A stretch of DNA of 64,000 nt from Dimorphilus gyrociliatus (lineage: Eukaryota > Animalia > Annelida), in contig CAJFCJ010000044.1 in assembly GCA_904063045.1 (NCBI GenBank), forward strand, positions 1 to 64,000, written 5' to 3'. The notes beneath the pieces are model-generated. The model searched no databases and was not told the DNA's origin. It saw only the letters and a program-made list of their open reading frames with translations. Below are positions 1,980 to 48,242 of the stretch, in pieces; the stretch's first letter is position 1; each line of letters opens with the position of its first letter. The position numbers and the translations under genes are program-made.

Positions 1980-2922
1980 TTATCTTGTAGTGTATGCGTT
2001 ATTTCTCCCCCCTCTGTAACATCTGCAATGAATATCATTCTTACCTTGCCACTGTCGTATTAAAATGATAGAGGATGGGAAGGACAGCGCCTTTGGTGGA
2101 CGCTTTTTCCTACTCCTACGTATTCGGTTATTAAAAGCCAAAGAACTTACTTCCTTCGAAAAATAAATTGGCGTTACGGCCAATAAGATGGAGAATAATG
2201 GAATTCCAATAAAAGTAACAAACATTCTTCTTTTGCTAGATTGATGAAAGTACTCATCCACCAAATACGAACAGTTTGCAGAGAATGTCAAGAATATTGA
2301 AAATAGAATTAAAGATGCGGTTAATGAACAGTAGATACTTTTTCTCCAATCTTCATCGTTTTCGCTATAATTACTACCAAAATATTGATCACCTATGGCT
2401 AAGATTAATAAATAAACTCCTGCAATGATATCTCCAAATGCTGAATAGATTTGTATGAGAGAGATTCTCCTCCCCCTCTTCAGTTGGTCGTTCTCTCTTG
2501 ACAATTGATAATATTCATCCATGGATAAGTCATTGGTTTTATCAATTGTCCTCTTGAATTGAATTTGACGTCGCAATTTCTTTCATATTTTATGGTTAGG
2601 CCTATAAATGAAAATGAATCGTGAACGAAAATTTTTTGTAATAGCATAAAACTACTATAAACGTCTCGATTATTTTTACAATCTTTATTGAAATTACAAA
2701 CAAATTGGGATTGATCTTCTCTTTATCGCTACATTCAAACAATTCCCAATCCTGACAATCAATTTCATCTTCTCCAGTCTGACAATCGTCCTTTCCATCG
2801 CAAATATAGATAATATTGATACAAATCATTTCAGATTTACATAGAAAGCTGTTGTGTTCGCAATTTTTGAAAAGAGAATTAATCAAATTGTTTGGCGAAA
2901 TGTTGTATTCTTCTGTAATCAA
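1980..2922 (-). pseudogene. LDLa + LGR/GRL101-type 7TM receptor fragment (LDLa repeats, TM2-TM4)
   Basis: 2602-2922 has ICDGKDDCQTGEDEIDC (LDLa). 1980-2576 has GDIIAGVYLLILAIGDQYFGSNYSENDEDWRKSIYC, typical of LGR TM2-ECL1-TM3. No TM1 or LRRs seen. Confidence 0.68.
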
Positions 2923-3342
2923 TCAACGAGATTATTAAAGTTTGTCAAAAAGTCTAAATTGTCATTTCAGCCGATGGGAGGGAGGAACAGAATGTATTAA
3001 AATTGATTGATTAGGTTCAACTCCTCCCGGAATTCAGCTATATCTGTTCAATAGATTACTTTTGTGGAGTTTATCAAAAAACGTTTTCTTTCCTTCAACG
3101 CAAAAATACATGGAAAATATTTTTGCATAACACAGGATCTTTTTAGTTTGTCCATCAGCAAAACTGTAAGATTCGTTTAAAGGATCATAGGAGTAAAAAA
3201 AAGCTATATTAACTTAATGCTATAAATGATATTTCTAATTGAGTTATATGACAGAAAATTTCCAGTTTAGTTATTAAAGATATTATTCCTGATGTTGTTT
3301 TTGTTGTATTTGTTTGAAGAACAAAAAAAACGGTATGAATAA

Positions 3343-4944
3343 TTACCTAATTAAGTTAATTAGAAAAATAACTGTTGATAAAAGTACTGAAAAAACAATT
3401 ACAAAAGCAGAAATTCTGTTTGAGTAGTGAAAAATAAATGATTTTTTCATTGGGTTAACAACAGCTTGGTGTCTTTCTAATGAAATCAGAAAAGTACTAA
3501 TGGAAAATAAAACTAATGAGAAAGACATGCTTGTTCCAAGAAATTGACAAAGACTTTCTCCAAAATTCGTCATGTTCCAAATAGGATAATGAATAAAAAA
3601 CATCTACTGCTGCAATTGTCACAATATAACAGGATGTTACAAAATCACTTCATATCAAAATGATTTGAAAGTAATTTATCCTCTTCTTTGAACATATAAT
3701 CAAGAAAAAAGAAATTATATTTCCCATTAGACCTAAAATGCCAAAAAGCCAAAAAACAGATCTAGTTAACAATGAACTCAACAATCTCTCACAATTAAAA
3801 AAAATTAGAGATGAGGGAAAACATTGCACATTTTTACCGAAAGATTTCCAAACTAAACAACAAAACTGAAATTTGTCATCATGAAAATTATCATTTACAT
3901 TTTTAATGCCATCTATAGAAAAGTGACAAGACAGTTCAGTGTTTCTATATGAAAGACAGTTGGGTATTGAAGGAATTATTTTAATTGAACAGGGAAGCTC
4001 ATCACTTCCATGCAAGCAATTCACAATGTTGTCACATACTTTTGAAAGAGTGATAAAAACCTGTTCTTTTCTACATTTGAAATATCCTTTTGGACTGAAA
4101 TTGTCTGAAATAGAATATATTTATATATTTTCTAGGTAATATAATTGAAGTAAAAGAATTCAAAGATTCCAACCACAGTCAGTTTCATCATCACCCATAT
4201 AGCATATGGTTTAAAGATGTTTCTACATTCTCCCTCATCATTGTTACAGTCTTTCTTTCCATCATTTTTGTGAAAGTTTGGTATACATTGATCTTCACAT
4301 TCATGTTGAAACTTTTTATTGCAACCTCTGTAAAGATATATAAGAGAAAGAGTATTGCAATGCTCTGAAGATCTAACCACAGTAATACCTTTCTTGTATA
4401 TTTCTGCTATCGCATTTTTATGCCAACAAAATTCATCACTTTGATCAAAACAGTTTCTTTCATTGTCACAGATGTGATCATTGTGAACACATTGTTGATT
4501 TTTACATTTTCTTCACTTTGATAGAAATGATTATAATATAGTTTTATATAATTAATCAAAGTAAAAATATTACTAACTCATAATTTTCTGAGCATTTTCC
4601 ATGTTCTGTTTTATTAACTAATGAATTAACTTTGTGTCTAAGATAGATATTTGTTTAAACCAACTGCAATATTGCTCATCCGATCCATCTGAACAATCAT
4701 TTTGATAATTGCAAACTTTCATATAGTCAATTTTTTCATTGGAGTTAAAGCATTCAAAATAATAGAAATCACGAAATCTGCATTGTTTTACCTCTTCATC
4801 TTCATTATATCTGCAATCATTGTATCCATCACATTGATAAATATTATTTATATAATTTTTAGTAACATAGCAAAAAAAATATGTTCAGTGATAAATTCAT
4901 GTGGTTTTCTTCATTTTGAATTTCTAAATTGTCTTCTCTATTAA
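3343..4944 (-). pseudogene. Multi-LDLa GRL101-like GPCR, partial (LDLa repeats, hinge, TM1, TM3-TM4), no LRRs
   Basis: LDLa motifs CDGYNDCRYNEDE, CNYQNDCSDGSDEQYC, CDNEKNCFDQSDE, NCLHGSDELPC. Hinge FCCL...CFP...NCERLL. TM1 SVFWLFGILGLMGN. TM3 ending in SLERH. Confidence 0.75.
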
Positions 4945-10039: not shown

Positions 10040-11420
10040 TATCAGTTATAGATTAAGATGCAGATTATTGTTCTGATGGTCATGATGTCAGCAAACAAAA
10101 ATTATTTATTAAGTTAAAGAAAATAGATAATTATCATCAGAGGAAAATTCATCAAAATTATGATGAAACTGCTATTAATATGAAATCATTAATGGATAAT
10201 GCAAGTGAAAGCAACACAAATCAGGTAATTTCAATTCTTAAAAAATATTATTATCTCATCTAAATTTTTAACAGTTAAGGCTTTCCTTTGACTTTAATTC
10301 ACCTGAATCACCAAACAATGAAAAAGAGTTGAAATTTCCTGAAGATGGACAAGATATGGCAAAGAGAGTTGATATAAGTGATGAAACTTCATTTGAGATG
10401 GATAAGCAGCATAACATCATGAAAACAGATAGAAATGATTTAAAAATTGTTGTAGATGGAAGTGCAAAAAATAAAGACTTACTTCTACACAAAAATTGTT
10501 CATATTCTCTAAAAAGAAAAACAGAAAGTTTAATCACCTAGAGATGTACTCAGAGATATGCCAAAGGTCCATGTCCTGCATACATATTACAAAAATGATC
10601 AAAGTTCATTCATTGTAAGAAATGAAAATCATCTTCATAAGTTGCATAAAAACTTAGAGAATGTTCTTCAATCAAGAATGGACTTGAAAGAAATGGCAAC
10701 TGGTGACAATGGAAAAACAGGTAAAAGAATAGCTGAAGGTATTATCCTAAAATTTAAAGATAATATTGAAGACTTGCCAGAACTAGAATCACTAAGAAGA
10801 CAAGCTTCCAGATATAAAGAGAGTAAAATATCAAAGCATCCCAGAGATTTAGATTTTGAAATAAATTTGGATGAAATTCCAATAGATTTCTTATTGAGAG
10901 ATATACAAGAAAAGAAGAATCATTGTATTATATTTTGCACAAATCATCAAAAGAATTACTGGAATGTTGTAAAATTTGGTTCATTGATGCAACATTTAAA
11001 GTTGTCAGAGATCCATTTTATCAACTCTTTTCAATTCATGGATTCTTGAAAAAATATGATGAATGTCAACAGGTTCCATTGGTCTATGTTCTGATGAATA
11101 GCTAAAAGAAAATCTGTTGTATTGCTGTACTTCAGTTTTGAGATATTTCAGTATTTTAATCACTTTTAATTTGTCATTTTTCATTTGAAAACAGGAGATA
11201 AGAAAATTAATCAATGATAAAACTCCCAGAAAATGTGCTTGACTTTGAAAAGGCTATATGGATGGAAATTAAAGAGCAATTTCCCAATTCTCAAAAAGTC
11301 TTCCAATGTAATGAAACCAATCTAATGCTATTGTTACAGAATTTTAAAGAGAGGCTAAAGAAATTGAAAAGATTAGATAAATTATTCTATATTTTTTTAT
11401 ATTTGTTCTATTGCATATAA
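10040..11420 (+). mobile_element. Degenerate FLYWCH-MULE transposase
   Basis: GSAKNKDLLLHKNCSYSLKRK...*RC...CPA (FLYWCH), HPRDLDFEI...IPIDFLLRDI, WFIDATFKVVRDPFYQLFSIHGF...QVPLVYVLM, DFEKAIW. Confidence 0.85.
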
Positions 11421-17211: not shown

Positions 17212-19590
17212 TTATGTTATCACCACTTTTTCTGAACATAGCAGTTCTATTTCTTCTGATTCAGCTGTTGGAGCTGAAGGTAATCTTTTTGTTTTTGTCA
17301 GTAGTTTAGACAGTCTGGTAAATTGAACTCTTTTCAGTTTTTTCTTCCAAATAAAGTAAATGAAGAATCCAATTCCATTCAAGAGTATAATTGGCAGAAG
17401 TGTGTCTATGAGTATTTTGAAAGGTTTTCTTATCCATGAAGAAAATAGATGTTGTGTTGGTGACAAGGCTGCATCAATTCCTAAATCATTTGCAAAGTTA
17501 ATATGCTCTCTATGCTTTATCAAAGTATCCTGTATGTATTCCAAAACTTGTTGTATCTGATAATGTTTCTTGCCCACATCTTCTTTTATACCTAGTTGTA
17601 ATAATTCAGTAAGTCTGACAACTTCTAGTTTTGGTTCTTCAATTTGACTGTTAATTTTCATTCTGATTGATTGTGCTGCTGCTCTTTGGAACCTGCATCC
17701 TTTCCTTGTATAATAGATAAATGTCTTCTTGCCAGAATGTATGGCATATTGATTTTGTTCTGCATCCAAAGGATATTTCTTGATCTTGAAGAGATGCTGA
17801 GTTTGGTCACATGTACCATATCTTATGTCTTCTTTTGTGATGTCATAAGCATGATGAAGTATTGGATCAATTGAGAATAGGAGATCTTTATATTTGATCA
17901 GAAATTCTTTTGAACATAATCCATTTTTTGTTATAATTGTTGTGTCACAAACTACTTGAACAGGTTTTAATTCTGTACATCTATTGAGGGTTCTTAGATC
18001 TCCTAACCATGTACTATGGGTTCCATGTTTAGATCCAAGTATTGTTGGTAGCTGAGGTGATAGTGGTGTAAGTAGGGCTATCATCTTGTTTCTCATGATA
18101 AATTCTTTGCATAAAAGTTGTGAAACTTGTTTAAAAACTGTTTGTAAATTTTGAAAATTGTTGTCAATATTGTTTAGTAGTGCAGCTGTTCTTATGGCAT
18201 CTTTTATATTTATTTGGTGTGGTTCTGGAATCTCTATGTTTTCTAATTGTTTCCTCTTCCATTTGTGATTTATTGGTTTTCTTTGTAACAGTGTATATTT
18301 GCCATTTTCTGTATGAATTTGAAATTGTGTATCTTTTGGGCTTTGATACCAAATGTTCATGTTTGGGAGTGGGTTGAAAGTAACTGGTTTTTTGTCCAAT
18401 TCAAACTCTTGTGATCTTACTAGTCAGGCAGGTTTTATCTTTGTTGTTTTCAGCATTTTTAGTATGTATTTGTTGTTAATATCCCAGATGTCTGGAGAAA
18501 TAATTTCTTTGACAAACCAAGTCCTCACTAATGGTGTTGCATGATTTTTTATCAGCATATGGTAGGTTTTGTCACCATCTCTATACCAATCATTATATGT
18601 TAAAATATCTTGTATTTCTGTGACATTGGCCTTTCTTAGTGAGGATTTCTTTCCAATATATTTCTCCAATCTATTAACTTCTTTATTTGAAATGATCTTG
18701 TATTTTGTATCCTCTATTATTTTATTGTCAGCATAATTAGAATTTGTAAGATCAGTTCTAAGTAAGTCATATTCTTTCTGGGGTACCAATACTCTGATAC
18801 CAGGACCACCATATCCTTTGATATATCTGTCTTGGTAAGGTAAATCCATTATTGCATAGTTGGGGCAGGAAAAATATCCTCCAAGTTTTACACATTCCAC
18901 ATTATGGGAAACCATTTTCCATGGTGAAACATGGCCTAGAAGACTTTGACCTTTTTCTGGATTAAATATAATGATTGAATCCAAAGTTCTACAAAATTTT
19001 TGTTTAAAAGAACAGTCTTCTAAATATTCCAAATTTGTGGTTATTTTATCTTGACTTGGATTCCAATAAGCCTTGCCAATTTGAAGGATTGTTGTAAATT
19101 CTTCCACCACTGTGGTTCTTGGCCATTTGTAATTTGGTCCTTTGTTTTCATTATACATAAGAAGTTTGCCTTTTTCAATTAGGTTTTGTCCATTTAAGGT
19201 TTTGTGTGTGTATAGCATTGTTCTGCATTGTTTTTCACTTAAGGCAAGTGTTTGTTTTTCAATTCTGTGTTTCTTTGCTCCAAAAAAGTAATGAGTGTAG
19301 AAATTGATTCTTCTTTTCACTGAACACTTGACAGCTTGAATTGCCAAATTGTCAGCTTTAATTTCATAGATGTTAGCTACAATTTTGATCATTTGTTTAG
19401 TTTCAAAGGCACATACTGGTTCATCTGCTAAATCAAATGATTGGTGTACTTGTTGTCCTTGACAAAACTGTAGTGATAGTAGCATTCTTACAGTTATGCT
19501 TGCTTTTGTTATGGATACATTTGCTTGGACCAAGTTTAAACAGCATATTGCTAACAGTGTATAACTTATTGATCCTCTGATAGGAAGCAT
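17212..19590 (-). pseudogene. env: Env A: class III-like viral fusion glycoprotein, one in-frame stop at 18424-18426
   Basis: Signal-like N-terminus (YTLLAICCLNLVQA). Shares FDLADEPxC, YFFGAKK, GKAYW, ITTNLxYLEDC and GGPGxxVLVP with env B. C-terminal TM LLPIILLNGIGFFIYFIW. ORFs 18424-19590 and 17212-18399 are in the same frame. Confidence 0.88.
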
Positions 19591-19594
19591 TCAC

Positions 19595-20348
19595 NNNNNN
19601 NNNNNNNNNNNNNNNNNNNNNNNNNNNNNNNNNNNNNNNNNNNNNNNNNNNNNNNNNNNNNNNNNNNNNNNNNNNNNNNNNNNNNNNNNNNNNNNNNNNN
19701 NNNNNNNNNNNNNNNNNNNNNNNNNNNNNNNNNNNNNNNNNNNNNNNNNNNNNNNNNNNNNNNNNNNNNNNNNNNNNNNNNNNNNNNNNNNNNNNNNNNN
19801 NNNNNNNNNNNNNNNNNNNNNNNNNNNNNNNNNNNNNNNNNNNNNNNNNNNNNNNNNNNNNNNNNNNNNNNNNNNNNNNNNNNNNNNNNNNNNNNNNNNN
19901 NNNNNNNNNNNNNNNNNNNNNNNNNNNNNNNNNNNNNNNNNNNNNNNNNNNNNNNNNNNNNNNNNNNNNNNNNNNNNNNNNNNNNNNNNNNNNNNNNNNN
20001 NNNNNNNNNNNNNNNNNNNNNNNNNNNNNNNNNNNNNNNNNNNNNNNNNNNNNNNNNNNNNNNNNNNNNNNNNNNNNNNNNNNNNNNNNNNNNNNNNNNN
20101 NNNNNNNNNNNNNNNNNNNNNNNNNNNNNNNNNNNNNNNNNNNNNNNNNNNNNNNNNNNNNNNNNNNNNNNNNNNNNNNNNNNNNNNNNNNNNNNNNNNN
20201 NNNNNNNNNNNNNNNNNNNNNNNNNNNNNNNNNNNNNNNNNNNNNNNNNNNNNNNNNNNNNNNNNNNNNNNNNNNNNNNNNNNNNNNNNNNNNNNNNNNN
20301 NNNNNNNNNNNNNNNNNNNNNNNNNNNNNNNNNNNNNNNNNNNNNNNN
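19595..20348. other. Assembly gap (754 N)
   Basis: Run of N. Confidence 1.
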
Positions 20349-21070
20349 GTACAATTTTAAGTAAACTAAGTAAATGTGTGTTTTTGAAAGAACAAGTTCA
20401 ATTCTTGGACACATTGTATCAGAAAAGGGGATTGAAACAGATAAGTCCAAGACAGATAAATTATATAATTTACAGCCACCAGTGTTTGCAAATTCACTAC
20501 TAAGCTTTGTTGCATTTGTGGCTATTACAGAAAATTTATACAAGATTTTGCAAGAGTAGCTAAACCTCTGTATATGTTAATGAAACTACATGGGAAAAAG
20601 GATAAATTGCAATGGACTGAGGAAGCCAAGCAATCATTTTTCAAGTTGAGAGATGCAGTAGTTAACCCTCCTGTATTACAACTACCTATTTGCTAAAGAT
20701 TTCACTTAACAACAGATGCATCGAATGTAGCTGTAGGAGGAGTTCTTGAACAAGTTTATGTAGATGAGAATGGGAAGAAACAATGAAACCCATTGCCTAC
20801 GCTTCAAAACAATTCAACAATAATCAAATGAAATATGCAGCCTATCAAAAGGAAGCATTTGGTGTTTACTGGGTTGTAAAGAAATTTTTACATTACCTTC
20901 AAGACAAGCCATTCTTTTTATATACTGACCATCAGAGTCTAGTACAAACATTTAAGCAAAACAAATTGAATGTCAGCACAGCAAAATGGGTCATGGCTTT
21001 AATGGATTTAAAATTTACAATTAACTATGTGGACAGGACGAAAAAATAGAGCAGATGCATTAACAAGATT
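20349..21070 (+). pseudogene. pol: Ty3/Gypsy-type RT C-terminus, connection and RNase H (frameshifted)
   Basis: SKC...LGHIVSEKGIETD, CGYYRKFIQDFARVAKPL, TTDASNVAVGGVLEQ, KPIAYASK, EAFGVYW...F..YL..KPF.LYTDHQSL, ADALTRL. Confidence 0.92.
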
Positions 21071-21299
21071 AGAAGAATATACACCCCAAGGAAAGTAACA
21101 TTTGAAGAGCTAATTCATGGAAAGATCAAAAAGGAGAATTCTCCCTCTATTTCAGTTAAAATGGAACAGTATGAACATATACCAGAGTTAACTTTTGTAG
21201 CTACCAGTGATAACAGTGAAGAGAAAATTGATTTGTCTTCTGTTGACTTACAGTCAGAGCAAGAAAAAGATGTGAATTTAAAATCAATTAAGAATATTT

Positions 21300-22470
21300 A
21301 ACATTGGATGTCAGCTACCTATTCCTTATTTTGGAACTTTTACACCTTCATAATGAGATGTTGTTCACAAGGAAATGATCTGGATATCCTTGAAGAAAGA
21401 AACATTCTGGTTTTACCTGACCATTTGATGCTAACTCTGCTCCCTAAATTCCATTAAAAATAAAATTCACAATCACCATGGACCCAGAATGACATTACAA
21501 ATAATTACAAAGACCTTTTGGCACCCCAAAATTAAAATTATGATTGAGAATTCAATAAAGGATTGCACTTTGTGTGAACAAATGAATGGTAGGAGTAGAG
21601 TATACCCTTTGTAGAAACCTTCACCCTGCATCACCAATGGAGTTGGAGCCATGGATATAATGGGACCCTTACCCATGGTTAAGTCATACAGATTCATACT
21701 TGTGATAGTGGATCATTTCCAGTAGATACACAGTTTTATATGCACTCAAACAGCAAACCAGTAAAGAAATTGCAAACCTTCTTTTCAACAGATTCTTTCC
21801 CATTTTTGGAATTCCAAAACAAATGTTGACAGATCAAGGAAGAAACTTTGTTGGTAAAGCTTTTAAAGAGTTTATGAAGGTATTAGGTATTGAGAAAATC
21901 CAAACAACAGCTTATAGAAGCCAGAGCAATGGACTAGTTGAACGAAGAAATAGAGAAGTGAGGAAGGAAATCAATAAATTAGTGGTGGAAGAAAATCAGC
22001 ATAACTGGGTTGCAAACCTACCCTTGATTCAAGCATTTTTGAATCAATCACCTGTAGGAAGTACAAGACTACCACCCCAGGAACTTCTTTTTGGCACCAG
22101 CACAAGAACACTGATTGATGTAACAATGCATACTACCTCTCCTGAAACAAATGTACTATTTGTATTCAATCACCAGCAGCAATTAGTACAGTTAAGAGCT
22201 ACAGCCTTCTGTAAATCCATCATGGCAAAAGAACAATATAGGGAAAGAAGAATAGAAATCTCAATCTTCCAAAATATTTTGAGGTTGATGATGAAGTATT
22301 CTTAAGAAATGATGCTGCAAGAATTGCGATAACAAAAATCCCTTCTTTAAAATGGTTAGGCCCATACCGAATAACAAAAGTCAATCATCAAAAGTGGATA
22401 TATGAAATACAAATGGATGATAATACATGCAAGTTGGTACATGGTAGCAGATTAAGACTAGCCAATGAAT
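21300..22470 (+). pseudogene. pol: Integrase (Zn-binding region, DDE core, GPY/F module), frameshifted
   Basis: HGPRMT...FWHP...DCTLC; DIMGPLP; VIVDHF; TDQGRNF; TTAYRSQSNGLVERRN; FEVDDEVFLRN...KWLGPYRI...VHGSRLR. Confidence 0.93.
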
Positions 22471-22569
22471 CTAATAAGTTGGAAACAGGGAAAGAAGCAA
22501 CAACAATCTTTCACCTTGTGGAGAAGGAAATAACACACCTCCAATATCTTTCTCAGGTAGAAGGAAGAA

Positions 22570-22915
22570 ATGACTTCCAATTCCGTTTGAAGAATCAAAA
22601 AGGCCAAGAAGTCATTGCCTTGTGTGACACAGGAGCATTGAGATCCTTTATTACTGAAAAAGAAATCAAGTTAATGGATGTTACAATTATGGATAAAGAA
22701 ACAATTGGCTTACCAATTATAACTTCAGCTGATGGGAAAGCTTTAAAGCAAAAGGAAGCGTAAAGCTGAATATCCAATTTGCTGGAGAAAGTATGGAACA
22801 AGAATTTATAGTTATGGAAAATCTAGACATAGCAATAATACTTGGTTGTGATTTCCTACAAACTGTGGGAGCAAACCTCAATTTTGAAGCTAAACAGTGT
22901 TCTCTCAAATTTGAT
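22570..22915 (+). pseudogene. Retropepsin (aspartic protease) located downstream of integrase
   Basis: ALCDTGALRSFI (DTGA at 22626) in frame with IN GPY. After a 1-nt shift near 22750, GSVKLNIQF...F.V..NLDIAIILGCDFL...GANLNF. Confidence 0.9.
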
Positions 22916-25900
22916 AGAAGGAAAGGGAACCTGGCTGAAAGAATAAGGCAACCTCAACTAAACAAAGTCACTATAGCCATGATGGGACAGCATGACTCTT
23001 CATCAGAAAGTTCAGATAGTGATGACTCAGAGATGGAAGTTACTAATTCTGATACTGGTTATGACACCAGCAATACTTTCAAAACAGACAGTAATTACAG
23101 TCTCAATGAACCTTCAAGCTCATCTGAAAGTGATGACACAGAAACAAATAATGAACTGGATCAAAATACAGATTCAGAGGCAAACATTATCTCTGATAGA
23201 GAAGATGAAATATCTAGTTCAGACGATGAGTCAATAATTATTGAAAGCGAAATTATTGATATAACCCATTCGGATAATGAGTCAATAATTATTGAAGGTG
23301 AAATTATTGACATAACCCATTCAGATAATGAGTCCCTCATAGTGGTAGATTCATCCCAAGATGAGAAAGAAAATACAAGTGACACAGACAATGAGTCAGT
23401 CATATTGTTAGATGAGACTAAAATCATCTCTGAACAATTAGATTCCCAACAAGAAGTGGAACCACAATATATAGAGTTAGAAGATGGAATAACTATCAGA
23501 GTGGAACAACAACACAAAATTTTCAACCATTCAACTATAGCCAACACAGGAAGAGCTAACATGAAACAGATGTTGTGGCTTCCACTAGTGATGACTGTAA
23601 TGGTGATCTGTGGCTGCATCCACTCAATAACAGTCCCAAAACCATCCTACCAAGGTGCCCATGTTACAAGTGCAAACATTACCTTAACATTTAAACCACC
23701 GTTATACTTTTGTTCTAACCAACTACCAAGCCAGGCATTTGATCTAGCAGATGAGCCAACTTGTAATATAGAATCACAAGAAACCAAGACAATTACAGCT
23801 GATATCTATGAATTGAACTTGGAAGAAATTGAAACAAGAGCAGTAAAATGTCAAGTGTATCTAAGAACTAATTTTTACACTTACTATTTCTTTGGAGCAA
23901 AGAAGAGGAGAATTGTTAACTCAGTTATCAAAGTAACTCATGATCAATGCAGACAGATGGTAAAAGACAAACGATCTTTTCAAGGAAAACCTTTAATGGT
24001 GAAAAGAAACACTTGGATCCACCAAGATCAGTTTCCTGCTGCCTACACATGGCCAACAACTACCAAGGTGCTGGAATACACCACAATTATCCAGTTTGGC
24101 AAAGCATATTGGCAACCTCCTAATATGAAAATTACAACTAATCTGGACTACCTGGAAGATTGTTTACCAGGGCAGTCCTATTGTGAGACAGAAGAGGCAA
24201 TTATTGTCTTTAGAAACCTCAAGAATAATTACACACTTGGGCAACAATCACCATGGATAAAAATTAGCAACAGAATTAGTTGTATCAAATTTGCTGGTCA
24301 CTATTCTTCTCCAGGGTATTCTATTCTGGACATCCCTTATCAAGATAAGTTCATTGATGGAATTGGTGGTCCTGGAACAAAAGTACTAGTACCACTGGAG
24401 GAACAGAGTTTAATACAGGAAACAAGCAAGGAACACCTATACAATTTGCTACAATATCAGAAGATTGGCAAAAATGAAGAAAAACGACTATTAAACTATC
24501 CCAATAAAGTTAAAGAACAAATTATACTATACAAGCGAAACAACCCCTTACCAAGTCTTAACCAATGGTACAGAGAAACAAACACAAAGTATAAACTAAT
24601 GAGAAATAAAGGCACACTCAAGGAAGTTGTGATATATCATCTACAACAACCCATTAGTCCAGCTTACTGGGAGCTGGATAACTATTATATCCAAGAAATG
24701 CTGCAAGCAGTCAATTGGACAAGGGCAACAAGACAATCTGTCACGATTTCAAAATATGTATACAGTGAGAAAAGAATCAAAAAGAAGGTATTACCAACAT
24801 TGGGCATATGGTATAAAGGACCACCAGCCAGAGAATTTAAGATTACCTATGAAGGAATTTATTTTACTCTACACATGAGAATGGCTAAAAAGCAGATGAA
24901 GAAGGAAGCAAAACTGAAACATAAGATAAGTAAAAACCCATACCACAAATTCCCATTGGAAATGAGAGAAGCTGCCCAAACATCTACCTTACTACATGGT
25001 ATTGATTCAAATTTTAAGAATTTAAAAAAGTTTACCCAACAGCTGTCAAGTCTTCTCTGCAATCAATTTGTTCAAAGAAGCAGAATGATGGCATTACTAG
25101 CAAATTTGGATCCTCAATTGACCACAGTGTTAACAAATGAGTTGGGAATGCACAGTAGTCAGATGGGAGAATTAGCTATAATTAAACAATGTTCACCAAT
25201 AGCCTCAACAGAAGTAGTTTGTGACTTAAGCATGATAAAAAAGAATAACAAATGTTCTCAATTTTTACTTGTCACCATGAACAACCTGCTTTTCCAAGTA
25301 GAACCAGTTACTCATGTTTTACAGCAAGTCAATCCTGAAGAGATTACCTATAATGAGTGTAAGTCTAACAAGTTATTCTACAAAACAACTCACAACCCAT
25401 TAAATCCTATAAGAAACCAACCAATGAAAGACAAAACGTATGTGTATTATTCAGAAAGAGGATGCAGATTTCACACTGTGTCTGCAAAATCCATGCAGTT
25501 ACATATCCACAATCACCTTTCTGAACCAAAAATTGAAATTGCCAGATTAGCTGATCTACTCCACCATGGGGTAAAGAAGGATATTGCATACCAGCACTCA
25601 AAAATTAAGCAAGTTATCAGTTCACTGGAACAGAAGCAGGCAAGGTATGATAACATGGTCACTGTTGCAGAGAAAAATGGCATTGTACCCAATTTATCTG
25701 GAATTAAACAGTTTTTCCATAGTTGGTACTATAAACCTGGGAAAACACTTTATGTTATCATATGAAATATTTGTTTGAGTATTGTAGTGTCAATGGTATG
25801 TATCATCATTTTCAACTATATTATTGGAAGAAGAAAACAAAGAGAAGAAATTGCTACCCCAAGTGAGAGCACAGATAACTCTCCTGAAAACCCAAAACTA

Positions 25901-25981
25901 ATGAAACAAAGTTGTAGCTTTAGTCAACATCAAACTAATGAAGAAGAACAACCACCTGTAATTCTCATTAAATCAAGATGA
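22916..25981 (+). pseudogene. env: Acidic Ser-rich linker + Env B class III-like glycoprotein (hydrophobic leader from 23561), one in-frame stop at 25763-25765
   Basis: In frame with the protease C-half (ORF 22793-25765). MLWLPLVMTVMVICGCIHS leader, Cys pattern shared with env A, TM NICLSIVVSMVCIIIFNYII in the same frame after TGA. Confidence 0.9.
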
Positions 25982-25996
25982 AGGGACTCATCTTCA

Positions 25997-26011
25997 CAAA
26001 GAAGGGGGAAG
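25997..26011 (+). other. Polypurine tract of element B
   Basis: AAAGAAGGGGGAAG ends 1 nt before the LTR start TGTACA. Confidence 0.85.
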
Positions 26012-26012
26012 T

Positions 26013-26647
26013 TGTACAACTTTGGTTATATTTTACATGCTTGAACTCTATTATTTTATGCAACATATACATGTACATCTTAAAACCTACGCAAGAAAAT
26101 GCTATAACATTGGCCAAACATAAGTCTGATTTGTCAGCTTGAAGGCTCATCTTTAATTACCAATAAAGGTTTGGCCAAGTTATAATTTAATTAACTTGCC
26201 TAGGGTGTGGCCAAGTTATAATTCAATTAACCTTCCTAAATGTTGAACCTTGTAACATCCTGTTACTAAAGATAAATATGAACTACACATTTCGGCAACT
26301 GTAAAGTGATGATTGGATGTCAGAGACAAACCTCAAAGTATATAAATCCTCATTATTCTCATTTGGCATGCAGCTTCCATCTGGACCCAAGGACCTGGGA
26401 AAATCATCTGGAAACAACCTCCACTGGAACCATCCATCTACTCCTCAACATTGGAAGACAGTTTGGTAATTTGGCAACCTGCTATTACAAACTATCTACT
26501 CTGCTATTGAACTCTCATATTGTTACTTGCTTAAGTATTATTATTGCGAATAAACCATTTTAATTTAAACATTTGTTTAAAGGTTCGAGTAGAACCAGTA
26601 TTGTTATAACTTGCAAACGCATAGATTTTGCCAGCAAGAGCAGTACA
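26013..26647 (+). repeat. LTR-B copy 1 (3' LTR, 635 bp, TGTAC...GTACA)
   Basis: Repeated at 31494, 39102 (-) and about 48243. ATTGG at 26312, TATAAA at 26341, AATAAA at 26549, internal tandem duplication of TGGCCAAGTTATAATT. Confidence 0.93.
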
Positions 26648-30277: not shown

Positions 30278-31135
30278 TTACTTTTGAAATTTTAATACCA
30301 ACTTTAAACATTCATCAAAGAAAATTTTTTGTGTTTTATCTGAAAGATCATATGATTTTTTACTAACAAAAGGATAATCAAAGTAGCCCAATCCTTCTAA
30401 ATTTGTAAAGTTAACAACAATAATTTTTTTCCTTTTTAAAATTTCAATCAAATGTTGACTTTCATCACTTAACTTTTTCTTTGTAAATGGAATGCAAATT
30501 ACAACTTTTTTTCCTTCCTGTAAACATTTGCTTACTGTTTCAAGACATAACTTATTTAAATCATACAATGATTTTACATATATAAATACATAGCTAAATG
30601 TCATTTTCCAACAACTTAAAATTGTTGATACAACATTAAAATTTAATTCATGAATATTAATTGCAAAGAAATCTAAATTGCATTTAAATTTGATTGGAAT
30701 TTGATGAAGATATTTAAATGAAATTGAACTAAGTGTAAAATCATTTAAAATTATTACATCTGAATTTATATCTATGTTTGGAGGGTGACATTTGATACAA
30801 TTAATTGCTTCTTCTTCATTGCTAAAATAGTTTTCTTTTCTATGTAACAATTTCCTTATTTCAGTAATTTTTTCATTGTCAATTCTTCTATTAAAAACAT
30901 GAGCATTGAATGAAAAACTATAATCATCTGTTATCTCCTTTAATAATTCAATAATTGGTTTATTGTTAGAATCATTTCTGTCTGTTGATGTGGTTGGTAA
31001 CTCACAATTATCCTCATCCTCCTCTTCAAACATATCTCCATTTTCATCCATCAAAAATTTGGGTGGTGAGTAAGTTTCTGGATCCATAATGTTATGTGTA
31101 ATGTATTCCTTTAACAGAACAATACTTAATATCAC
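30278..31135 (-). CDS. Orphan family X protein, distant member
   Basis: 285-aa ORF. Acidic N-terminus, then alternating beta/alpha pattern (VIILNDF, FFAINI, CWKM..VFIYVK) loosely matching TILTDQF, FCIE, W.L...+.+Y+K of other X copies. Confidence 0.5.
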   Translation of the reverse strand: MILSIVLLKEYITHNIMDPETYSPPKFLMDENGDMFEEEDEDNCELPTTSTDRNDSNNKPIIELLKEITDDYSFSFNAHVFNRRIDNEKITEIRKLLHRKENYFSNEEEAINCIKCHPPNIDINSDVIILNDFTLSSISFKYLHQIPIKFKCNLDFFAINIHELNFNVVSTILSCWKMTFSYVFIYVKSLYDLNKLCLETVSKCLQEGKKVVICIPFTKKKLSDESQHLIEILKRKKIIVVNFTNLEGLGYFDYPFVSKKSYDLSDKTQKIFFDECLKLVLKFQK

Positions 31136-31493
31136 AGTTTAAATTTATACATAATGGAAGTAGTCATATTCAGTTTCACACATAAACTTCTTCTATTACA
31201 TAATAAAATCAAATTTAACAAAAATATTCCCATGAGAAAATTAATTAAGGAAAGGGTTTTTCTTAAATAAAATATAAATGCTAATTAGTTGAACAGTAGT
31301 TGTAACTCCCAATTAGATACTTTTCCATAAGTCACATTTTTATTAATATACAATTTCGTCACAAAAACCTTAAATTTCTTATTAATTGTCACAGAATATT
31401 CAAATTTGGTACAATAAAGGATAATATTACGCTGATCTCAAATCTTTTTCCAGAATTCAATTATCTTTTATGGTTCAAGAGTTATGGCGCTAT

Positions 31494-32090
31494 TGTACAA
31501 CTTTGGTTATATTTTACATGCTTGAACTCTATTATTTTATGCAACATATACATGTACATCTTAAAACCTACGCAAGAAAATGCTATAACATTGGCCAAAC
31601 ATAAGTCTGATTAGTCAGCTTGAAGGCTCATCTTTAATTACCAATAAAGGTTTGGCCAAGTTATAATTTAATTAACTTGCCTAGGGTGTGGCCAAGTTAT
31701 AATTCAATTAACCTTCCTAAATGTTGAACCTTGTAACATCCTGTTACTAAAGATAAATATGAACTACACATTTCGGCAACTGTAAAGTGATGATTGGATG
31801 TCAGAGACAAACCTCAAAGTATATAAATCCTCATTATTCTCATTTGGCATGCAGCTTCCATCTGGACCCAAGGACCTGGGAAAATCATCTGGAAACAACC
31901 TCCACTGGAACCATCCATCTACTCCTCAACATTGGAAGACAGTTTGGTAATTTGGCAACCTGCTATTACAAACTATCTACTCTGCTATTGAACTCTCATA
32001 TTGTTACTTGCTTAAGTATTATTATTGCGAATAAACCATTTTAATTTAAACATTTGTTTAAAGGTTCGAGTAGAACCAGTATTGTTATAA
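31494..32090 (+). repeat. LTR-B copy 2, lacking the last ~38 bp, inserted into a 182-bp repeat unit
   Basis: Nearly identical to 26013-26610. Confidence 0.92.
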
Positions 32091-33864: not shown

Positions 33865-34656
33865 TCAATTGTTTGTTGCTTTGAAAAATATTCTCATCAT
33901 TCTAACTAGAACAGTTATCTCTTTTTTACACATTTCATTTGGGTTTGAAATAAATTTGCAATTCATCAACTTTAAATCATTTGCTATCTCTCTGTTAAAA
34001 GAGTTTCTAACAAAATATAAATGCAGATCTGGGATAAAATAAAATAAACTTTCAATGCTTTTTTTGATATCAAAGTTTACAATTCTATTTTTCAAATAGA
34101 TTAGAATATTTTTACTTTTCAAATTCCATTGAAGTATTATTGGAAATATATCCTTAATTGTTAATTTCTCAATGCAAAAAATTTGAAAAGCTTGTTCAAG
34201 TTTCAAAATATTTTTAGCTTTAGAAAAATTTTCAAAATTTAAATCTACAAATTGATCAGTTAAAATTGTATAATCTGTTGATAGGATCTTGAAAGGTTTT
34301 ATTCTTTTTAGATGCTTTTCTAGTTTTCCTTTTGAAAAACTATAATTACTTGTGATATTAACTGCTCTCTTGACAATTAACATATTATCAAAATTACAAA
34401 ACCTTTCATTTTCCTTTTGTAAAATTGTAATTGATGTATCAAAATTTAAAGATTGTTCAACATCAGCCATTGTATCAAACTCAATATTTTGTCCAATTTG
34501 TAAAAAATTCTTTTTTCCAAAGTCTTTTAAAATTTTCATTTCAAATTTCTCTTCAATTGTTTTAATACATGGTACAATTTCTCCTTGTTCAGTTAATTCC
34601 ATATCAGACTGTATTTCAAATAAAGTTGATGGTGATAGTGGTTGTTGATAAAACAT
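33865..34656 (-). CDS. Orphan family X protein (263 aa)
   Basis: NMLIV.R, DYTILTDQF, FCIE, NPNEMCKKE shared with the 37491 and 40569 ORFs. Confidence 0.7.
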   Translation of the reverse strand: MFYQQPLSPSTLFEIQSDMELTEQGEIVPCIKTIEEKFEMKILKDFGKKNFLQIGQNIEFDTMADVEQSLNFDTSITILQKENERFCNFDNMLIVKRAVNITSNYSFSKGKLEKHLKRIKPFKILSTDYTILTDQFVDLNFENFSKAKNILKLEQAFQIFCIEKLTIKDIFPIILQWNLKSKNILIYLKNRIVNFDIKKSIESLFYFIPDLHLYFVRNSFNREIANDLKLMNCKFISNPNEMCKKEITVLVRMMRIFFKATNN

Positions 34657-37490
34657 ATCTTCTGTGCTTTAAAAACAAAATATCTCTTTTTCACATTTAT
34701 TTTTTTAGTTTACAGAATACTTACAAAAACTTCTGTCTTCTGACTTAGATGTATATCTATCAGTATCCAACTTGTGAATGATAATATTCATCTAAATACA
34801 CACAGCTAAATATACATTCATTGGTAGGAGGAGTTTACTTTAATACAATTAATTAATTAGATAAGGAAGTTTTTTTACCCAAAATTACTTGTAACCAAAC
34901 CATTGCCATCAATTAAACACTTTTCCCATTAATTGCATTATTCTTTAATGTGACATTAATCCTTAAAAAAGCAAAGATACAATTAGAAAATCTATACATA
35001 TAGGCTTTTATATACAATTTCATCACAAAAACCTTAAATTTCTTATTAATTGTCACAGAATATTCAAAATTGGTACAATAAAGGATATTATTACACAGAT
35101 ATCAAATCTTTTTACAGAATTCAATTATCTCTTATGGTTCAAGAGTTATGGTGCCATAAAATTTGGTCAATATTTTGTCATACAAGCCTATTTAATAAAT
35201 ATTCGTCATGTAAAAACTAACTTTCTTATTTGTAAACGTAGAAATTTGAAATTTGGTATATACTTCAATTTTATTACACCGATGTCAAATCTTTTAACAG
35301 AATTCAATTATCTTTTATGGTGCATGAGTTATAGCTCCATGAAATTTGGTTGATATTTATGACCAACCAGTCAATATATCAAATATTTGACTGAAAATTA
35401 ACTTTGTTTTTAATAAATGTAGTTATTTGAAAATTGCTTTATTGACTAATTTTGGTATGGCAGTCTGAAATTCATTTACAGAATTTAATTACCTCCAATA
35501 GTTAAGTGGTTATGGCTTCCAAAAATTTTGGTTAAAAAGTTCTTTTTAAGGCTATGTAATTGGGAAAAGGAAAACTTTAAAATTGTCACTGACAAAGTAA
35601 GAAAATATAGTAATGTAAATAGAAGGTTTTTTCATGCATATCTTCATTTATTAGTTCATTTTGTAAGAAATTTAAAAATACAATTATTTAATGAACTTTT
35701 AAAAAAGAAAACATATTATTTCTGCATAAAACTATACACAATTTGTTTTCTAATTTTTCATATGAACAAAAAGGAATATATATTAAAAATTTCATTTCAA
35801 TGTCTTTAAGAAAGAAAAGTAGGCTTTTTATAAATTACATATTTAAATAAATAACATTTTTGCACAATTATCTGGGTCAAAAGTAATTAATAAACACAAA
35901 GTTTCAAGTGTTCTTTTTTTTTAACAATTGCAGGTTTAAAATTTAATGTTTTAAAGTCAGTCAATCCAGTTCGCCAGCCTGTTAGTCTCTCAATAAATTC
36001 TTGATTAGTCAGATGTCAAATGATTGTTGTGGATTGTTTCTTTCATTTGTTTTTCTAAGCCAAAAAAGCAGTTTGTAAAGGACAATAACCTGAAAAAAAT
36101 TAAAGAAATGTTGTTTGTAGACAAATAAAGAGTTAAAATTTTATTTTTACTATCCATTCAAATATTCATCAAAGATGTTTCCAGATAAAAAGCAAAATTC
36201 CAGCTTTTAGATAATTTCTTTTTCTGTAAAAAAAAAAGGAAGCAGAAGACAATTAAAAGAAACATTGTTTGATAAACTTACCAAAAAAGTTATCTATTTT
36301 TTGAGAAGATTTTAATTCTTTTAAAGAAGCTTTGAGCTCTGACCTACAAAATACTTCCTAAACTTACAACATGAAAAACAAAAGACAAAAAAGCATTATC
36401 AAGTAGTTGAAAATGCCTTTTTAAGTTAATTTTTTGAAAGATATCATATAAGAGAAATCAGTCAAAAATTAAGGAAACAAGACAATTTAATACAGAATTC
36501 AGTATCTCAAATGAGAAATTGAATTGAAAACAGCCATCATGTATTTGAACACCTCATAAAGGCTTTCAGTAAATACAATCTGAGAGAATACAATTACAAA
36601 TAATTATAATACATAAAACTTATACCTAGAAACATACTATATAAACTGCAGAGTTTTTTCTCCAGTACTTCAAAGAACACTCCATTGGAAGAATTCTCAA
36701 CTCGATAACCTACACAAAGATTAGGCTACAAAATACTTTATTTACTTTCTGATAAATTATTCATTTTAGATATTTCAAAGGAAAAATCAGAATAATCCAT
36801 CAGAAAATATAAATCCTTACAAAATTACAAAGAGCTCCTACTCCTTCAAAAGTTGGAAATGAAATGATGTTTTCCCAACAAGCTGTAAGGTTTATCTGTA
36901 AAATACTCTATGTTGATTGGTGAATACTTAACTTTTTTTTTTTAACATGCCTGTAGTAGTCATTTCCAGATGGTGAAAATGTAGAAAATATCTTTAATTC
37001 TTATATTTTTAATATCTAAAACTTAAATTAATAGATTTGTAAATATTATGGGAATGATTGTACAGGTATTACAATAAATATTATAATAACAAGAGATTTA
37101 TTGATAAATTTATCAAAAACAATAGTTCATTTTCTGTCAATTTTATGGAATATTTGATTAAAATAATTCACATACAAACACCTTTATATAATTTAATTTA
37201 TATATTTACATGCCATGAACAAGTGTTCTGTAATTTTTATTGTCTTGTGAGAAAATATCTTGCACTAAAATGCAATTGGGAATGTTTTCCCACAAGAAAA
37301 AACAAATTTTTTTAGTGAAAGTTTCTAGTGAAAGTAAAGTCTGACAGAGAAAATGAATCTGATTATATGATTTTTTCAATTTTATTTGTACAACAAATAT
37401 ACAAACCACTTGAAAGAAATTGTAAGAATATATAAAAAACAAATTTGATTAAAAAGAATAGAGCTAATACAAATAATTTGAACACTAAAT

Positions 37491-39041
37491 TTAATTTTTA
37501 ACAACAGATATTAATTCTTTAAGCAATCTAATAACAAGAGTTTCTTCTTTTTTACATATTTCATTAGGATGGTTTAATAATTTACATCCCATTACTTTCA
37601 AATCTTGACAAATATTCTTATCAAATGATTTTTTTGTGAAATACAAATTATTTTTGGAAAAAGGTAACTGCTTAACAATTTTCTTAATGTCAACATTTTT
37701 AGAATTATGCTTTATATATACAAAAAGATTACTTGTAATTAATTTCCAACCAGTTACAATTGGAAGTAAATCATCCATTTCTAAATTTTCTATACAAAAC
37801 ATTTGTACTTTTTTTTCTGTTTTAATTATAGCTTGTAACTTTTCCCATTTTTTTTCATTTAAATTAACAAATTGATCTGTTAAAATTGTAAAATCAGTTA
37901 CATTTGTAAATTGTGGTTTAACCTTTCTTAAAAATAATCTTTGACTTGCATCAATAATATTCAAAGAATTAGTGTCTACCATAATATTATTGCTTCTTTG
38001 AACAATCAACATATTACCTATATCTATCTTTTTTTCATTTTTCTCTTGTAAATTAAAATAAAACTGATCAACAATTTCTCCTTCTTCTTCTTCTCCTTCA
38101 TTTATCTCTTCCATCTCTATTTCTTGGCCAACTTCTAAATTTATTCCCAATTCTTCTAATAAACCAATATCAATTTGTGTATAATTGTCAGTATTACAAT
38201 CATTTATTTGAAGAGTTGTTGCAGCCTCTGCTCTAGCTGCTGCCTCAATTATTTCTTCATCACTAGTTGTAGTTGCAGTTTGTTCTGTAAATGTTGTTAA
38301 TTGTTGACTGGTTGCTTCTGCAATTGTTGGTGTTTGTGTCATAACAATTTCTTCAGTTCCAATTGTTGTAGTTGGTCTTGATGATTGATCTAATTCTTTT
38401 CCAAGTCCAGTAATATGTATTTGAGTAAATGGTCTAGGCAGAGAAAACCTCTTTATTAATTTCTTTGCTCTATTAACAAACTGAACCACACTTTCGCCAT
38501 TCATTTGCTTTAAGTTAAGCAATTTCTCTTGATACTCCAAAGGATCCAGATCAAATTCATCATGGAGGGCTTTCCATATTTCCTCCACAGTAGGCTCTCC
38601 ATCCAGAGCCAACACCAAATCCTTTGCAGGACCAGTTAAATAATCTAAAAGATTTGCTTTCACAACATCTTCACCAATCCAACCATAAGCATAACATGCC
38701 TGATTAAAGTCTTCCTTGAATTTTGAACACTCGTTGCTTCCATCATACAACTTGAGAATAGTTCTTTGAGGGCAATCCCAAGCAGCCCTTAATGCTTGAA
38801 TAACTGTTGTGATATCAACATTTGGGTTCTGTGCTGGGTGATGTGTTCCATGTCCATGATCTGTTGGAATTGTGATTCGATTTCTTTTCATTTCACTCAC
38901 CAATCTATCATAGTCTTCAATTAGTCTTTGTTGCCTTTCTGACATTCCTGCTGGCTGAATTGTAATTGTTGGAGTTGCTGGGGTTGAAGGGTTAGAGTCT
39001 GTAACTGCCCCAGTGGCATTTCCATTTCCTCCTTCTGCCAT
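37491..39041 (-). CDS. Chimeric ORF (516 aa): Gypsy Gag capsid (aa 1-~214) fused in frame to a family X protein
   Basis: YDGSNECSKFKEDF...W...ANLLDYLTGPAK...KLLNLKQMNGESVVQFVNR (retrotrans_gag pattern), then KELDQSSRP..., paralogous to 40569-41539. No stops. Confidence 0.88.
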   Translation of the reverse strand: MAEGGNGNATGAVTDSNPSTPATPTITIQPAGMSERQQRLIEDYDRLVSEMKRNRITIPTDHGHGTHHPAQNPNVDITTVIQALRAAWDCPQRTILKLYDGSNECSKFKEDFNQACYAYGWIGEDVVKANLLDYLTGPAKDLVLALDGEPTVEEIWKALHDEFDLDPLEYQEKLLNLKQMNGESVVQFVNRAKKLIKRFSLPRPFTQIHITGLGKELDQSSRPTTTIGTEEIVMTQTPTIAEATSQQLTTFTEQTATTTSDEEIIEAAARAEAATTLQINDCNTDNYTQIDIGLLEELGINLEVGQEIEMEEINEGEEEEGEIVDQFYFNLQEKNEKKIDIGNMLIVQRSNNIMVDTNSLNIIDASQRLFLRKVKPQFTNVTDFTILTDQFVNLNEKKWEKLQAIIKTEKKVQMFCIENLEMDDLLPIVTGWKLITSNLFVYIKHNSKNVDIKKIVKQLPFSKNNLYFTKKSFDKNICQDLKVMGCKLLNHPNEICKKEETLVIRLLKELISVVKN

Positions 39042-39079
39042 ATTTACTTTCTCAAAACTTTTGAATAAACCAAAATATT

Positions 39080-39097
39080 ATCCTGTTGACTGCGCCA
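39080..39097 (-). other. Primer-binding site, probably tRNA-Ser
   Basis: TGGCGCAGTCAACAGGAT 4 nt after the LTR end. Resembles the complement of eukaryotic tRNA-Ser 3' ends (TGGCGYAGTCGGCAGGAT type). Confidence 0.75.
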
Positions 39098-39101
39098 AAT
39101 T

Positions 39102-39735
39102 TGTACTGCTCTTGCTGGCAAAATCTATGCATTTGCAAGTTATAACAGTACTGGTTCTACTCAACCTTTAAACAAATGTTTAAATTAAAACGGTTTATTC
39201 GCAATAATAATACTTAAGCAAGTAACAATATGAGAGTTCGATAGCAGAGTAGATAGTTCGTAAAAGCAAGTTGCCAAATTACCAAACTGTCTTCCAATGT
39301 TGAGGAGTAGATGGATGGTTCCAGTGGAGGTTGTTTCCAGATGATTTTCCCAGGTCCTTGGGTCCAGATGGAAGCTGCATGCCAAATGAGAATAGTGAGG
39401 ATTTATATACTTTGAGGTTTGCCTCTGACATCCAATCATCACTTTACAGTTGCCAAAATGTGTAGTTCATATTTATGTTTAGTAACAGGATGTTACAAGG
39501 TTGAACATTTAGGAAGGTTAATTGAATTATAACTTGGCCACACCCTAGGCAAGTTAATTAAATTATAACTTGGCCAAACCTTTATTGGTAATTAAAGATG
39601 AGCCTTCAAGCTGACTAATCAGACTTATGTTTGGCCAATGTTATAGCATTTTCTTGAGTAGGTTTTAAGATGTACATGTATATGTTGCATAAAATAATAG
39701 AGTTCAAGCATGTAAAATATAACCAAAGTTGTACA
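39102..39735 (-). repeat. LTR-B copy 3 (5' LTR, 634 bp)
   Basis: Full-length inverted copy followed by PBS and gag ATG. Confidence 0.93.
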
Positions 39736-40202
39736 ATTGTTCATAGGAAAATCAGAATAACCCATCAGAAAAAAAATTATTATATAGTTACACAGAGGTC
39801 TTACTCCTACAAAAGCTGGAGGTGGAATGAAATTACCCCAACAAGAACTAAGGGTTGTCTGAGGAATACTGTGTGCTGATTGGCTTAGAGTACTAAAGCA
39901 GCTCTCTGATTGGCTATGGGAGAAACTTTTGCAGATCCCTCTAGTGGTAATTTTAAAGATGACGAAAATTTAAATAATGTTTAATTAAAATTATTTTAAT
40001 ACATACAGTATTTGTAACATTGAATCAATATATAATTATTATATAAATAAAAACAATAATTTAGATACCAAACACAATATATACCATTTCAGTTGATTCA
40101 TTTAAGCATATACTTTTCAAGATAACATTCAAACTATCAATAAAATGCATAAATATACACATGTTAATGAACATTATACAAGATACTAATGATATCATCT
40201 AA

Positions 40203-40568: not shown

Positions 40569-41885
40569 TTAACATTTAACAGCAGACATTAATTCTCTAA
40601 GCAATCTAATAACAAGAGTTTCCTCTTTTTTGCATATTTCATTGGGATGGTTTAATAACTTACATCCCATGACTTTCAAATTTTGACAAATTTCTTTGTC
40701 AAAAGTTTTTTTTGTAAAACACAAATTATTTTTGGAAAAAGGTAACTGCTTAACAATTTTTTTTATGTCTATGTCTTTTGGAATATTCTTTAAATATATA
40801 AAAAGATTACTGGTGATTAATTTCCAACCAGTTATAATTGGAAGTAAATCACCCATTTTTAAATCTTCAATACAAAATATTTGTATTTTTTTTTCTGTTT
40901 TAATCATAGATTGTACCTTTTTCCATTTTTTATCACCTAACTTAATAAATTGATCTGTAAGAATGGTATAATCAGTAACATTTGTAAATTGTGGTTTTAC
41001 CTTTCTGAGAAATATTTTTTGTGTTTTATCAATTATATTTAAAGAACCAGTGTCTACAATAATATTATTAGTTCTTTGAACAATCAACATATTACCTACC
41101 TCTATTTTTCTTTCATTTTTTTTTGTAAATCAAAGTAGAATTTATCTACTATTTCTTCCTCTTCTTCTTCTACTTCATTTATCTCTTCCATCTCAATTTC
41201 TTGGCCAATTTGTAAATTAATACCCAATTCTTCTAATAAACCAATATCCATTTGTGTATAATTGACTGCATTACAATCACTTATTTTAATAGTTGTTCCA
41301 GTGTCTGCTGATGCTGTTGTTGCTGCTTCTGCTCTGGCTGCAGCTTCAATAATTACTTCATCACTTGTTGTAGTTATTGCAGTTTGTTCTCTTAGTGTTG
41401 TAGCAATAGTGTTGTCTGCAATAGTTGATGTTTGTGGAATTTCTTCTGTTGCTCTAATTGGAACTGGTCTTGTTGATTGATCAATTTCTCTTTCTGCTGT
41501 AGTATTGTTTTCTTGTTGTGGTATAATCTCTTCTTCCAATTTATGTACTTTTCTATAAAATGTTAATAATTCTTTTTTGACACTTGAGCAAATTTTTTCT
41601 TTTTTTCACCATATTTTTCAAGACACTTTTTATTTTTTCTATAAATATTTTTTTCACACAAGTCCAAAATTTCTTTAAATTCTTTTTCTTCCTTAATTAC
41701 TTCCATTAATTTTGGTAAATGAACATATTTTGAAAAATCCATATTACTTTGATTGTATTTTTTCATGCTTTTCTTTGAAATTTTGATTAATTTTGAAATA
41801 CCATTTTTCAAATCCTCAAAACCTTCTTCATCTTCATTCACTTTTTTAATTGTTGTTCCACCAAGCAATCTGTATTGGTTGACAT
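40569..41885 (-). pseudogene. Family X full-length member (~430 aa) broken by three homopolymer frameshifts
   Basis: ORFs 41563-41868, 41102-41539 and 40569-41090 join via single-A indels in A-runs, from MSTNTDCLVEQQ to ...LMSAVKC. Confidence 0.72.
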
Positions 41886-42144
41886 GTGTTGTTTAATTGT
41901 AAGCAATCAATAATCAGAATATTTATGTAAGTTTTTTGATATTTTCAATACAAGATACATAACATTATTTAGGACAATTGAAATTGAACAAAGTGAACAA
42001 AGGGTTAGAAAATATGTATGAAAATAAAATTTTTATTAATTATTTCTATTGTTTAATATATAAAGACAAAAATTTTGAACAAGGGCTGTTTGTTTTTAAT
42101 GTTTGAGTAAAAATTGTCTTATTTTCTAGACAATTCACTCTGGA

Positions 42145-48156: not shown

Positions 48157-48242
48157 GACAAAAATTTAGATTGAGAAATGGTTAGGCAGAAGAAAACAGT
48201 AATAGAAAAGGTTAGGTACAGCTAAGGGCTGTTCAACCTAAT

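Follow-up and report, generated by a model that had tools for sequence, protein, structure and literature searches.

Among LTR elements with an altered pol order, the Gmr1-type gypsy and Ty1/copia elements have integrase ahead of reverse transcriptase (RT), and in both the protease stays first. They are a precedent for rearrangement of pol; in the element described here, however, integrase comes after RNase H and a protease comes after integrase. For the pol of Ty3/gypsy, BEL and retroviral elements, the protease-first order is regarded as invariant (PMC12440569). In some errantiviruses the ORFs are fused or rearranged, and GAG-POL-ENV, POL-ENV, GAG-ENV-POL and ENV-GAG-POL have been recorded (PMC13524379); since Env and pol in a single ORF, as appears to be the case here, are thus already on record, fusion to Env is not by itself new. 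However, a protease between integrase and Env is described for none of these elements in the accessible text of that paper.

The two closest descriptions concern Ty3/gypsy elements, a placement that both sources state in their accessible parts (PMC7854359; PMC13524379). The name Dingle has been given to Ty3/gypsy elements with a gB-type env from a Dinophilidae host (PMC7854359). The available text and supplements of that paper (preprint 10.1101/2020.05.07.078311) name no protease of the element, although the boxes in its Extended Data Fig. 3d may show one. Annelida_Polychaeta_Dgyr_errantivirus_1 has been catalogued with LTRs of 631/636 nt, a primer site 4 nt past the LTR and an internal length of 8048 nt (Chary and Hayashi, eLife, PMC13524379), as well as an HSV/gB-type Env (ENV_HSV) and seven copies (Supplementary file 1 of the same paper). 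It is labelled there with GAG-POL, a separate Env and a chromodomain after integrase. In the main text, as far as available, the word 'protease' occurs once, within the canonical PRO-RT-RH-IN order, and a protease after integrase is not mentioned for this element.

In this study, we analysed an element in a 64-kb stretch of AT-rich, animal-like DNA (36% GC), referred to below as the window, which has a single N gap at 19595-20348. The element very probably belongs to a known family; what is apparently new is a conserved and seemingly unremarked protease after integrase. We found no description of such a protease in the titles, abstracts and passages covered, a scope outside which subscription papers and Repbase mostly fall.

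Domain order and probable identity of the element

On the plus strand, the sequence to the right of the gap encodes the end of RT, the remainder of which falls inside the gap, followed by RNase H, integrase, a retropepsin, an acidic linker, Env, a polypurine tract and an LTR. The features are as follows, the last two belonging to another copy.

20349 to 20690, plus strand: RT end and connection region, with KCVF at 20372 by six-frame reading; frameshifted in this copy
20700 to 21046, plus strand: RNase H, with TDAS at 20712 and DHQSL at 20927 (Pfam RT_RNaseH, E 5e-18 on 20795-21046)
21460 to 22240, plus strand: integrase zinc-binding (HHCC) domain and DDE core (Pfam rve, E 1.3e-7), with HNHHG at 21468, CTLCE at 21564, MDIMG at 21651, DQGRNF at 21832 and NGLVER at 21928; frameshifted in this copy
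22242 to 22460, plus strand: C-terminal GPY/F module of integrase, with GPY at 22359 and HGSRLR at 22440
22560 to 22749, plus strand: N-terminal half of the retropepsin, with ALCDTGA at 22617 and the catalytic DTG (Asp codon at 22626), in the frame of the GPY/F module
22751 to 22930, plus strand: C-terminal half of the retropepsin, with ILGCDFL at 22838, downstream of a frame break in this copy
22988 to 23560, plus strand: acidic linker, 191 aa long with 28% Asp+Glu and 18% Ser, which keeps the reading frame open between protease and Env
23561 to 25981, plus strand: Env of class III (gB/rhabdovirus G-like), from hydropathy, an AlphaFold model and Foldseek
25998 to 26011, plus strand: polypurine tract, directly 5' of the LTR
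26012 to 26647, plus strand: 3' LTR of 636 nt with TGTACA ends, with further copies in the window
39080 to 39736, minus strand: 5' LTR belonging to another member of this family, with its primer-binding site (39097-39080) four bases past the LTR
38412 to 39041, minus strand: gag start of the 39 kb copy, about 210 aa, with its ATG 61 nt past the LTR; truncated by host-like sequence

The integrase and protease motifs lie where an earlier note on this DNA had placed them, and the order integrase, protease, linker and Env that it had proposed was confirmed and is common to other copies and to sister families. One ORF (22242-22763) holds both GPY and ALCDTGA, whereas a second (22733-25765, 1010 aa) carries ILGCDFL, the linker and Env in a different frame; RT, RNase H and integrase of the window copy are disrupted by many more frameshifts. 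The C-terminal half of the protease was correctly seen to be open into the linker and Env, but, contrary to what had been claimed, the reading frame is not stop-free to the end of Env: a single in-frame stop at 25763-25765 breaks the C-terminal transmembrane segment. Three Pfam matches outside the protease are weak or below the cut-off, namely RT_RNaseH_2 at its start for the RT end region (E 0.009), Integrase_p58_C for the GPY/F module (E 0.056) and PNMA for the gag start (E 0.0018).

The two halves of the protease cover complementary parts of retropepsin profiles, each half alone scoring below the curated Pfam cut-offs: gag-asp_proteas 7-38 of 92 for the N-terminal half (E 0.035), and RVP_2 81-131 of 136 (E 0.0017) and RVP 61-100 of 101 (E 0.022) for the C-terminal half. 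A D[TS]G motif and a hydrophobic-G-x-D motif at domain spacing, as expected for clan AA, are both present; when all six frames of the window are considered, a motif of the ILG.D[FWL] type occurs just once, 215 nt downstream of the DTG. ESM Atlas matches of the N-terminal half that are named as retropepsins (0.85-0.87) are a lead only, and retroviral-like aspartic protease 1 accounts for six of the seven PDB sequence matches of the C-terminal half (E 0.2-0.3); both sets of matches are weak. With the ORF that joins the GPY/F module to the protease, a PDB sequence search gave no match and a word-based protein search, which is weak evidence, no relatives; otherwise such word-based searches gave only two distant integrases. 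Scans of viral and metagenome contigs were negative; the single prokaryotic match (L001) falls in a bacterial gene, but out of frame, and was rejected as fortuitous. The Pfam chromo profile had no match on 22242-22760, and the alignment of this region to the tail of P0018, a canonical Pol protein, was not significant.

At 23561 Env has an ATG of its own and a signal segment that is hydrophobic. Its AlphaFold model, built on an alignment of 13 sequences, has a pLDDT of 58.8 and a pTM of 0.34, compared with a pLDDT of 33.5 for the single-sequence model. The top Foldseek matches were rhabdo-like G (E 1e-12) and herpesvirus gB (E 8e-10), at TM-scores of about 0.2 and with the model pTM of 0.34. 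The fold similarity seen in this model, the signal segment and the C-terminal membrane anchor are together those of a class III fusogen, the type to which Env, as modelled, belongs. A PDB sequence search with Env gave no match and the word-based protein search, again weak evidence, no relatives. A full HMMER search found 12 proteins, the longest of 813 aa; one of these homologues, P0004, matches Rhabdo_glycop_FD (E 2e-5, Pfam), and Pfam showed no protease in any of the 11 that were scanned.

The TG...CA ends of the LTR, the primer-binding site (from the copy at 39097), the polypurine tract and the order RT, RNase H and integrase with a GPY/F module are those of Ty3/gypsy elements. A Ty1/copia or Gmr1 order was rejected, as both need integrase upstream of RT and here it follows RNase H. 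Troyka elements, which have CG...CG termini and lack a GPF/Y motif according to the accessible text of PMC12440569, were likewise rejected in view of the TG...CA ends and the GPY motif.

The earlier note had suggested a distinct lineage. Our results do not support this: the element is very probably not a new lineage but an envelope-carrying Ty3/gypsy errantivirus, likely of the annelid Dingle group, since a published errantivirus agrees with it in the lengths of LTR and internal part, in the primer site and in the type of env. The LTR measures 636 nt, as against 631/636 nt in Dgyr_errantivirus_1, the primer site lies 4 nt past the LTR and agrees in 11 of 12 letters (copy at 39097), and Env is of the HSV/gB type in both. 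In record 1 of sequencing run X1, 2384 nt separate the LTR end from position 20362, which gives an internal length of 8034 nt, or about 8049 nt after a net gap count of +15 (record 8 of run X2), compared with 8048 nt. The match to Dgyr_errantivirus_1 is one of descriptors, taken from the accessible part of PMC13524379. Dingle, as far as the available text of PMC7854359 describes it, is also a Ty3/gypsy LTR element with a gB-like Env downstream of integrase, and comprises several related families; here too a second, Dingle-like env is present (17212-19590, minus strand). This second env is 34-39% identical to the first, has one stop at about 18424 and faces away from the gap, and the sequence downstream of it recurs at 50707-51062 (96%).

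The integrase–protease junction in other copies

The junction at 22470-22570 was tested with contigs of six public sequencing runs (X1-X3 and X5-X7 of seven listed, X4 being left out). In four of the six, from two studies, X1, X2 and X3 (study P1) and X5 (study P2), one contig spans it; X6 had no cover there and X7 short pieces only. Depth is flat over the junction and no joint is listed there. The window itself may have been derived from the material of X1-X3, and independent support is therefore that of X5 and of the sister families. A mis-join at this place, about which the earlier note had warned, was not found. The window copy is rich in errors and begins at a scaffold gap, which would fit an assembly error near 22470-22570 or local recombination there between two elements, but in the face of these contigs, the flat depth and a summed length that agrees with a published multicopy element, we regard such an origin of the arrangement as highly improbable.

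The whole of 21690-23760 lies within a single X2 contig, whose three gaps coincide with the three frame breaks of the window copy in that stretch; besides these there are four differing letters, none of which creates a stop. From this coincidence it follows that the breaks belong to the window copy. Elsewhere, integrase, protease, linker and the start of Env appear to share one frame, as judged from the difference tables.

The earlier note had also asked whether other copies would lack the protease. It is kept after integrase in the sister families, whose contigs (records 10 and 11 of X3 and record 14 of X5) show 82-85% identity in the protease region, with four out of five differences, among those listed, at third-codon positions. 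The linker, by contrast, differs in length between sister families. In record 11 of X3 the C-terminal half of the protease leads into an unrelated-looking stretch of 727 nt (580 in the window) and then into the pre-Env region. Of the three linker joints of known length, two change it by multiples of three (+147 and -102) and the third, at -107, does not. The third-position bias, together with in-frame length changes at two of three joints, suggests that the protease as well as the fusion is under selection.

Two runs also contained features of a different kind. Run X5 skips 60, 59 and 66 nt at 22654-22713, 25334-25392 and 26266-26331, and each skip is bounded by GT...AG when the minus strand is read. 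A textbook donor and acceptor mark the first of them, within the protease; a deletion was considered and rejected here, an antisense intron with canonical minus-strand splice sites being the better explanation. X5 is probably RNA, with the element probably transcribed and spliced in antisense, and the transcript might resemble a silencing precursor or host read-through. In X7, 43 of the 45 differing places in 21690-23760 are G>A or C>T, the pattern of a base-converted library, and this library could be used to study methylation of the element.

The interval between Gag and RT

Whether the protease after integrase is an additional copy or the relocated original depends on what lies upstream of RT. 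From the gag ATG, 61 nt past the LTR, to KCVF there are about 778 codons. In P0018 the ILxGxDL motif of the protease lies 299 aa upstream of KCHF. The front of a protease takes up some 75-85 aa, and together these leave about 390 aa for Gag, which is an ordinary size. An interval of this length would thus be expected if a canonical protease were present, which makes an extra copy likelier than pure relocation.

A second indication in the same direction comes from the protein P0010, in which residues 37-115, just upstream of the RT start, match retropepsin families in all three of the named ESM Atlas matches listed (0.91-0.94). However, Pfam and PDB searches with this stretch yielded no protease, and in shuffle-controlled pairwise tests no score reached significance. 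The stretch has a degenerate motif (VLLGVTF), and the model is spliced where the catalytic motif would fall. P0010 is a chimeric public gene model, parts of which are 61-68% like this Env and LTR, and its RT may or may not be that of a Dingle element. In it a host-type TSP1/C1q protein is combined with env-like, RT-start, env and LTR pieces, and it is likely a mis-predicted model across nested elements.

Both lines of evidence suggest that a protease-like domain is likely to be present also at the normal site before RT, and an additional protease is more likely than pure relocation, which we consider somewhat less likely. In the latter case the protease after integrase would be the only active one and, acting from the C-terminal end, would carry out the maturation of Gag and the whole of Pol, in the order Gag-RT-RH-IN-PR-Env, the site before RT being empty or occupied by a dead remnant. 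The intact DTG of the downstream protease and its conservation across sister families, in which the linker is not conserved, agree with this, as does the fact that in the sole upstream protease-like stretch seen, that of P0010, the motif is degenerate and Pfam gives no match. On the other hand, the length of the interval is as expected for a canonical protease, and the P0010 stretch is still retropepsin-like, with its catalytic motif hidden by the splicing of the model. Relocation is therefore the less probable reading, though one to be taken seriously. It is conceivable to a similar degree that the only working protease of Dingle moved to the far end of Pol, so that Gag-RT-RH-IN-PR-Env, which would be an undescribed order for a retroelement, forms one chain, and that particle maturation is triggered at the membrane in which Env is anchored.

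Possible roles of the fused protease

The explanation that we prefer, and that we hold to be about evenly balanced between right and wrong, is that in this Ty3/gypsy element, likely of the Dingle group, the retropepsin between integrase and Env is likely an extra copy, predicted from sequence to free integrase from the membrane-anchored leader of Env. Intact copies would translate integrase, protease, linker and Env into a single polypeptide. Within it, the hydrophobic segment at 23561 would serve as an internal signal, directing Env into the ER, where it would be released by host signal peptidase, while the integrase-protease-linker part would stay in the cytosol, tethered by this segment. 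The protease could then dimerise at the membrane and cut off integrase and itself, but would not be able to reach the ectodomain of Env. For the acidic linker we propose the role of a flexible spacer, which its variable but mostly frame-preserving length fits. The idea of the earlier note that the protease was there to process Env may thus hold in a narrow sense, for a cut upstream of the signal segment, and would probably not extend to the ectodomain. Several points count against this explanation: Env could be made from a separate mRNA, given its own ATG; the published element is labelled with a separate Env and a chromodomain after integrase; one linker joint, at -107, is not a multiple of three; and the protease halves are each below Pfam cut-offs.

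The same ATG raises another explanation, namely that the protease arrived with an env cassette or through an old recombination, that Env is made alone from the ATG at 23561, and that the fusion has no role and the protease is at most a spare. Env does have its own start and signal segment, and in insect errantiviruses Env is made from a spliced mRNA. GAG-POL and ENV are, in addition, annotated separately in the accessible part of PMC13524379. Neither the third-position bias in the protease nor the in-frame length changes at two of the three joints would be expected from this, however, nor would a linker of 191 codons that is free of stops in DNA of 36% GC, and we consider this explanation improbable.

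If a recently multicopy family has a conserved protease between integrase and Env, this would mean either that the protease-first order can break or that two proteases can have different jobs. An extra protease that frees integrase would also offer an answer to how elements with pol and env in a single ORF part a nuclear integrase from a membrane protein. Pipelines that use RT and integrase only, as for the trees in the accessible parts of PMC13524379 and PMC7854359, would overlook domains of this kind among the other 1,500 errantiviruses in the catalogue.

Further copies of the LTR lie at 31493-32090 (99.8%), 39102-39736 on the minus strand (97.6%) and 48230-48636 (95%). In the 39 kb copy the truncated gag continues in frame into a copy of a host-like ORF (ORF 37491-39077). 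This ORF belongs to a small duplicated family on the minus strand (37491-38400 and 40569-41319), two copies of which are 84-88% identical in DNA, and similar ORFs are found at 33865-34668 and 30278-31138. Elsewhere in the window, judging by eye, there are what we take to be LDL-receptor-repeat/LRR/GPCR-like genes (1980-4512 and 56015-58429, minus strand), presumably a discoidin-like gene (42130-43494, plus strand), and fragments that seem to resemble Mutator-type transposases (10534-11049, 45297-46139 and 61328-61789).
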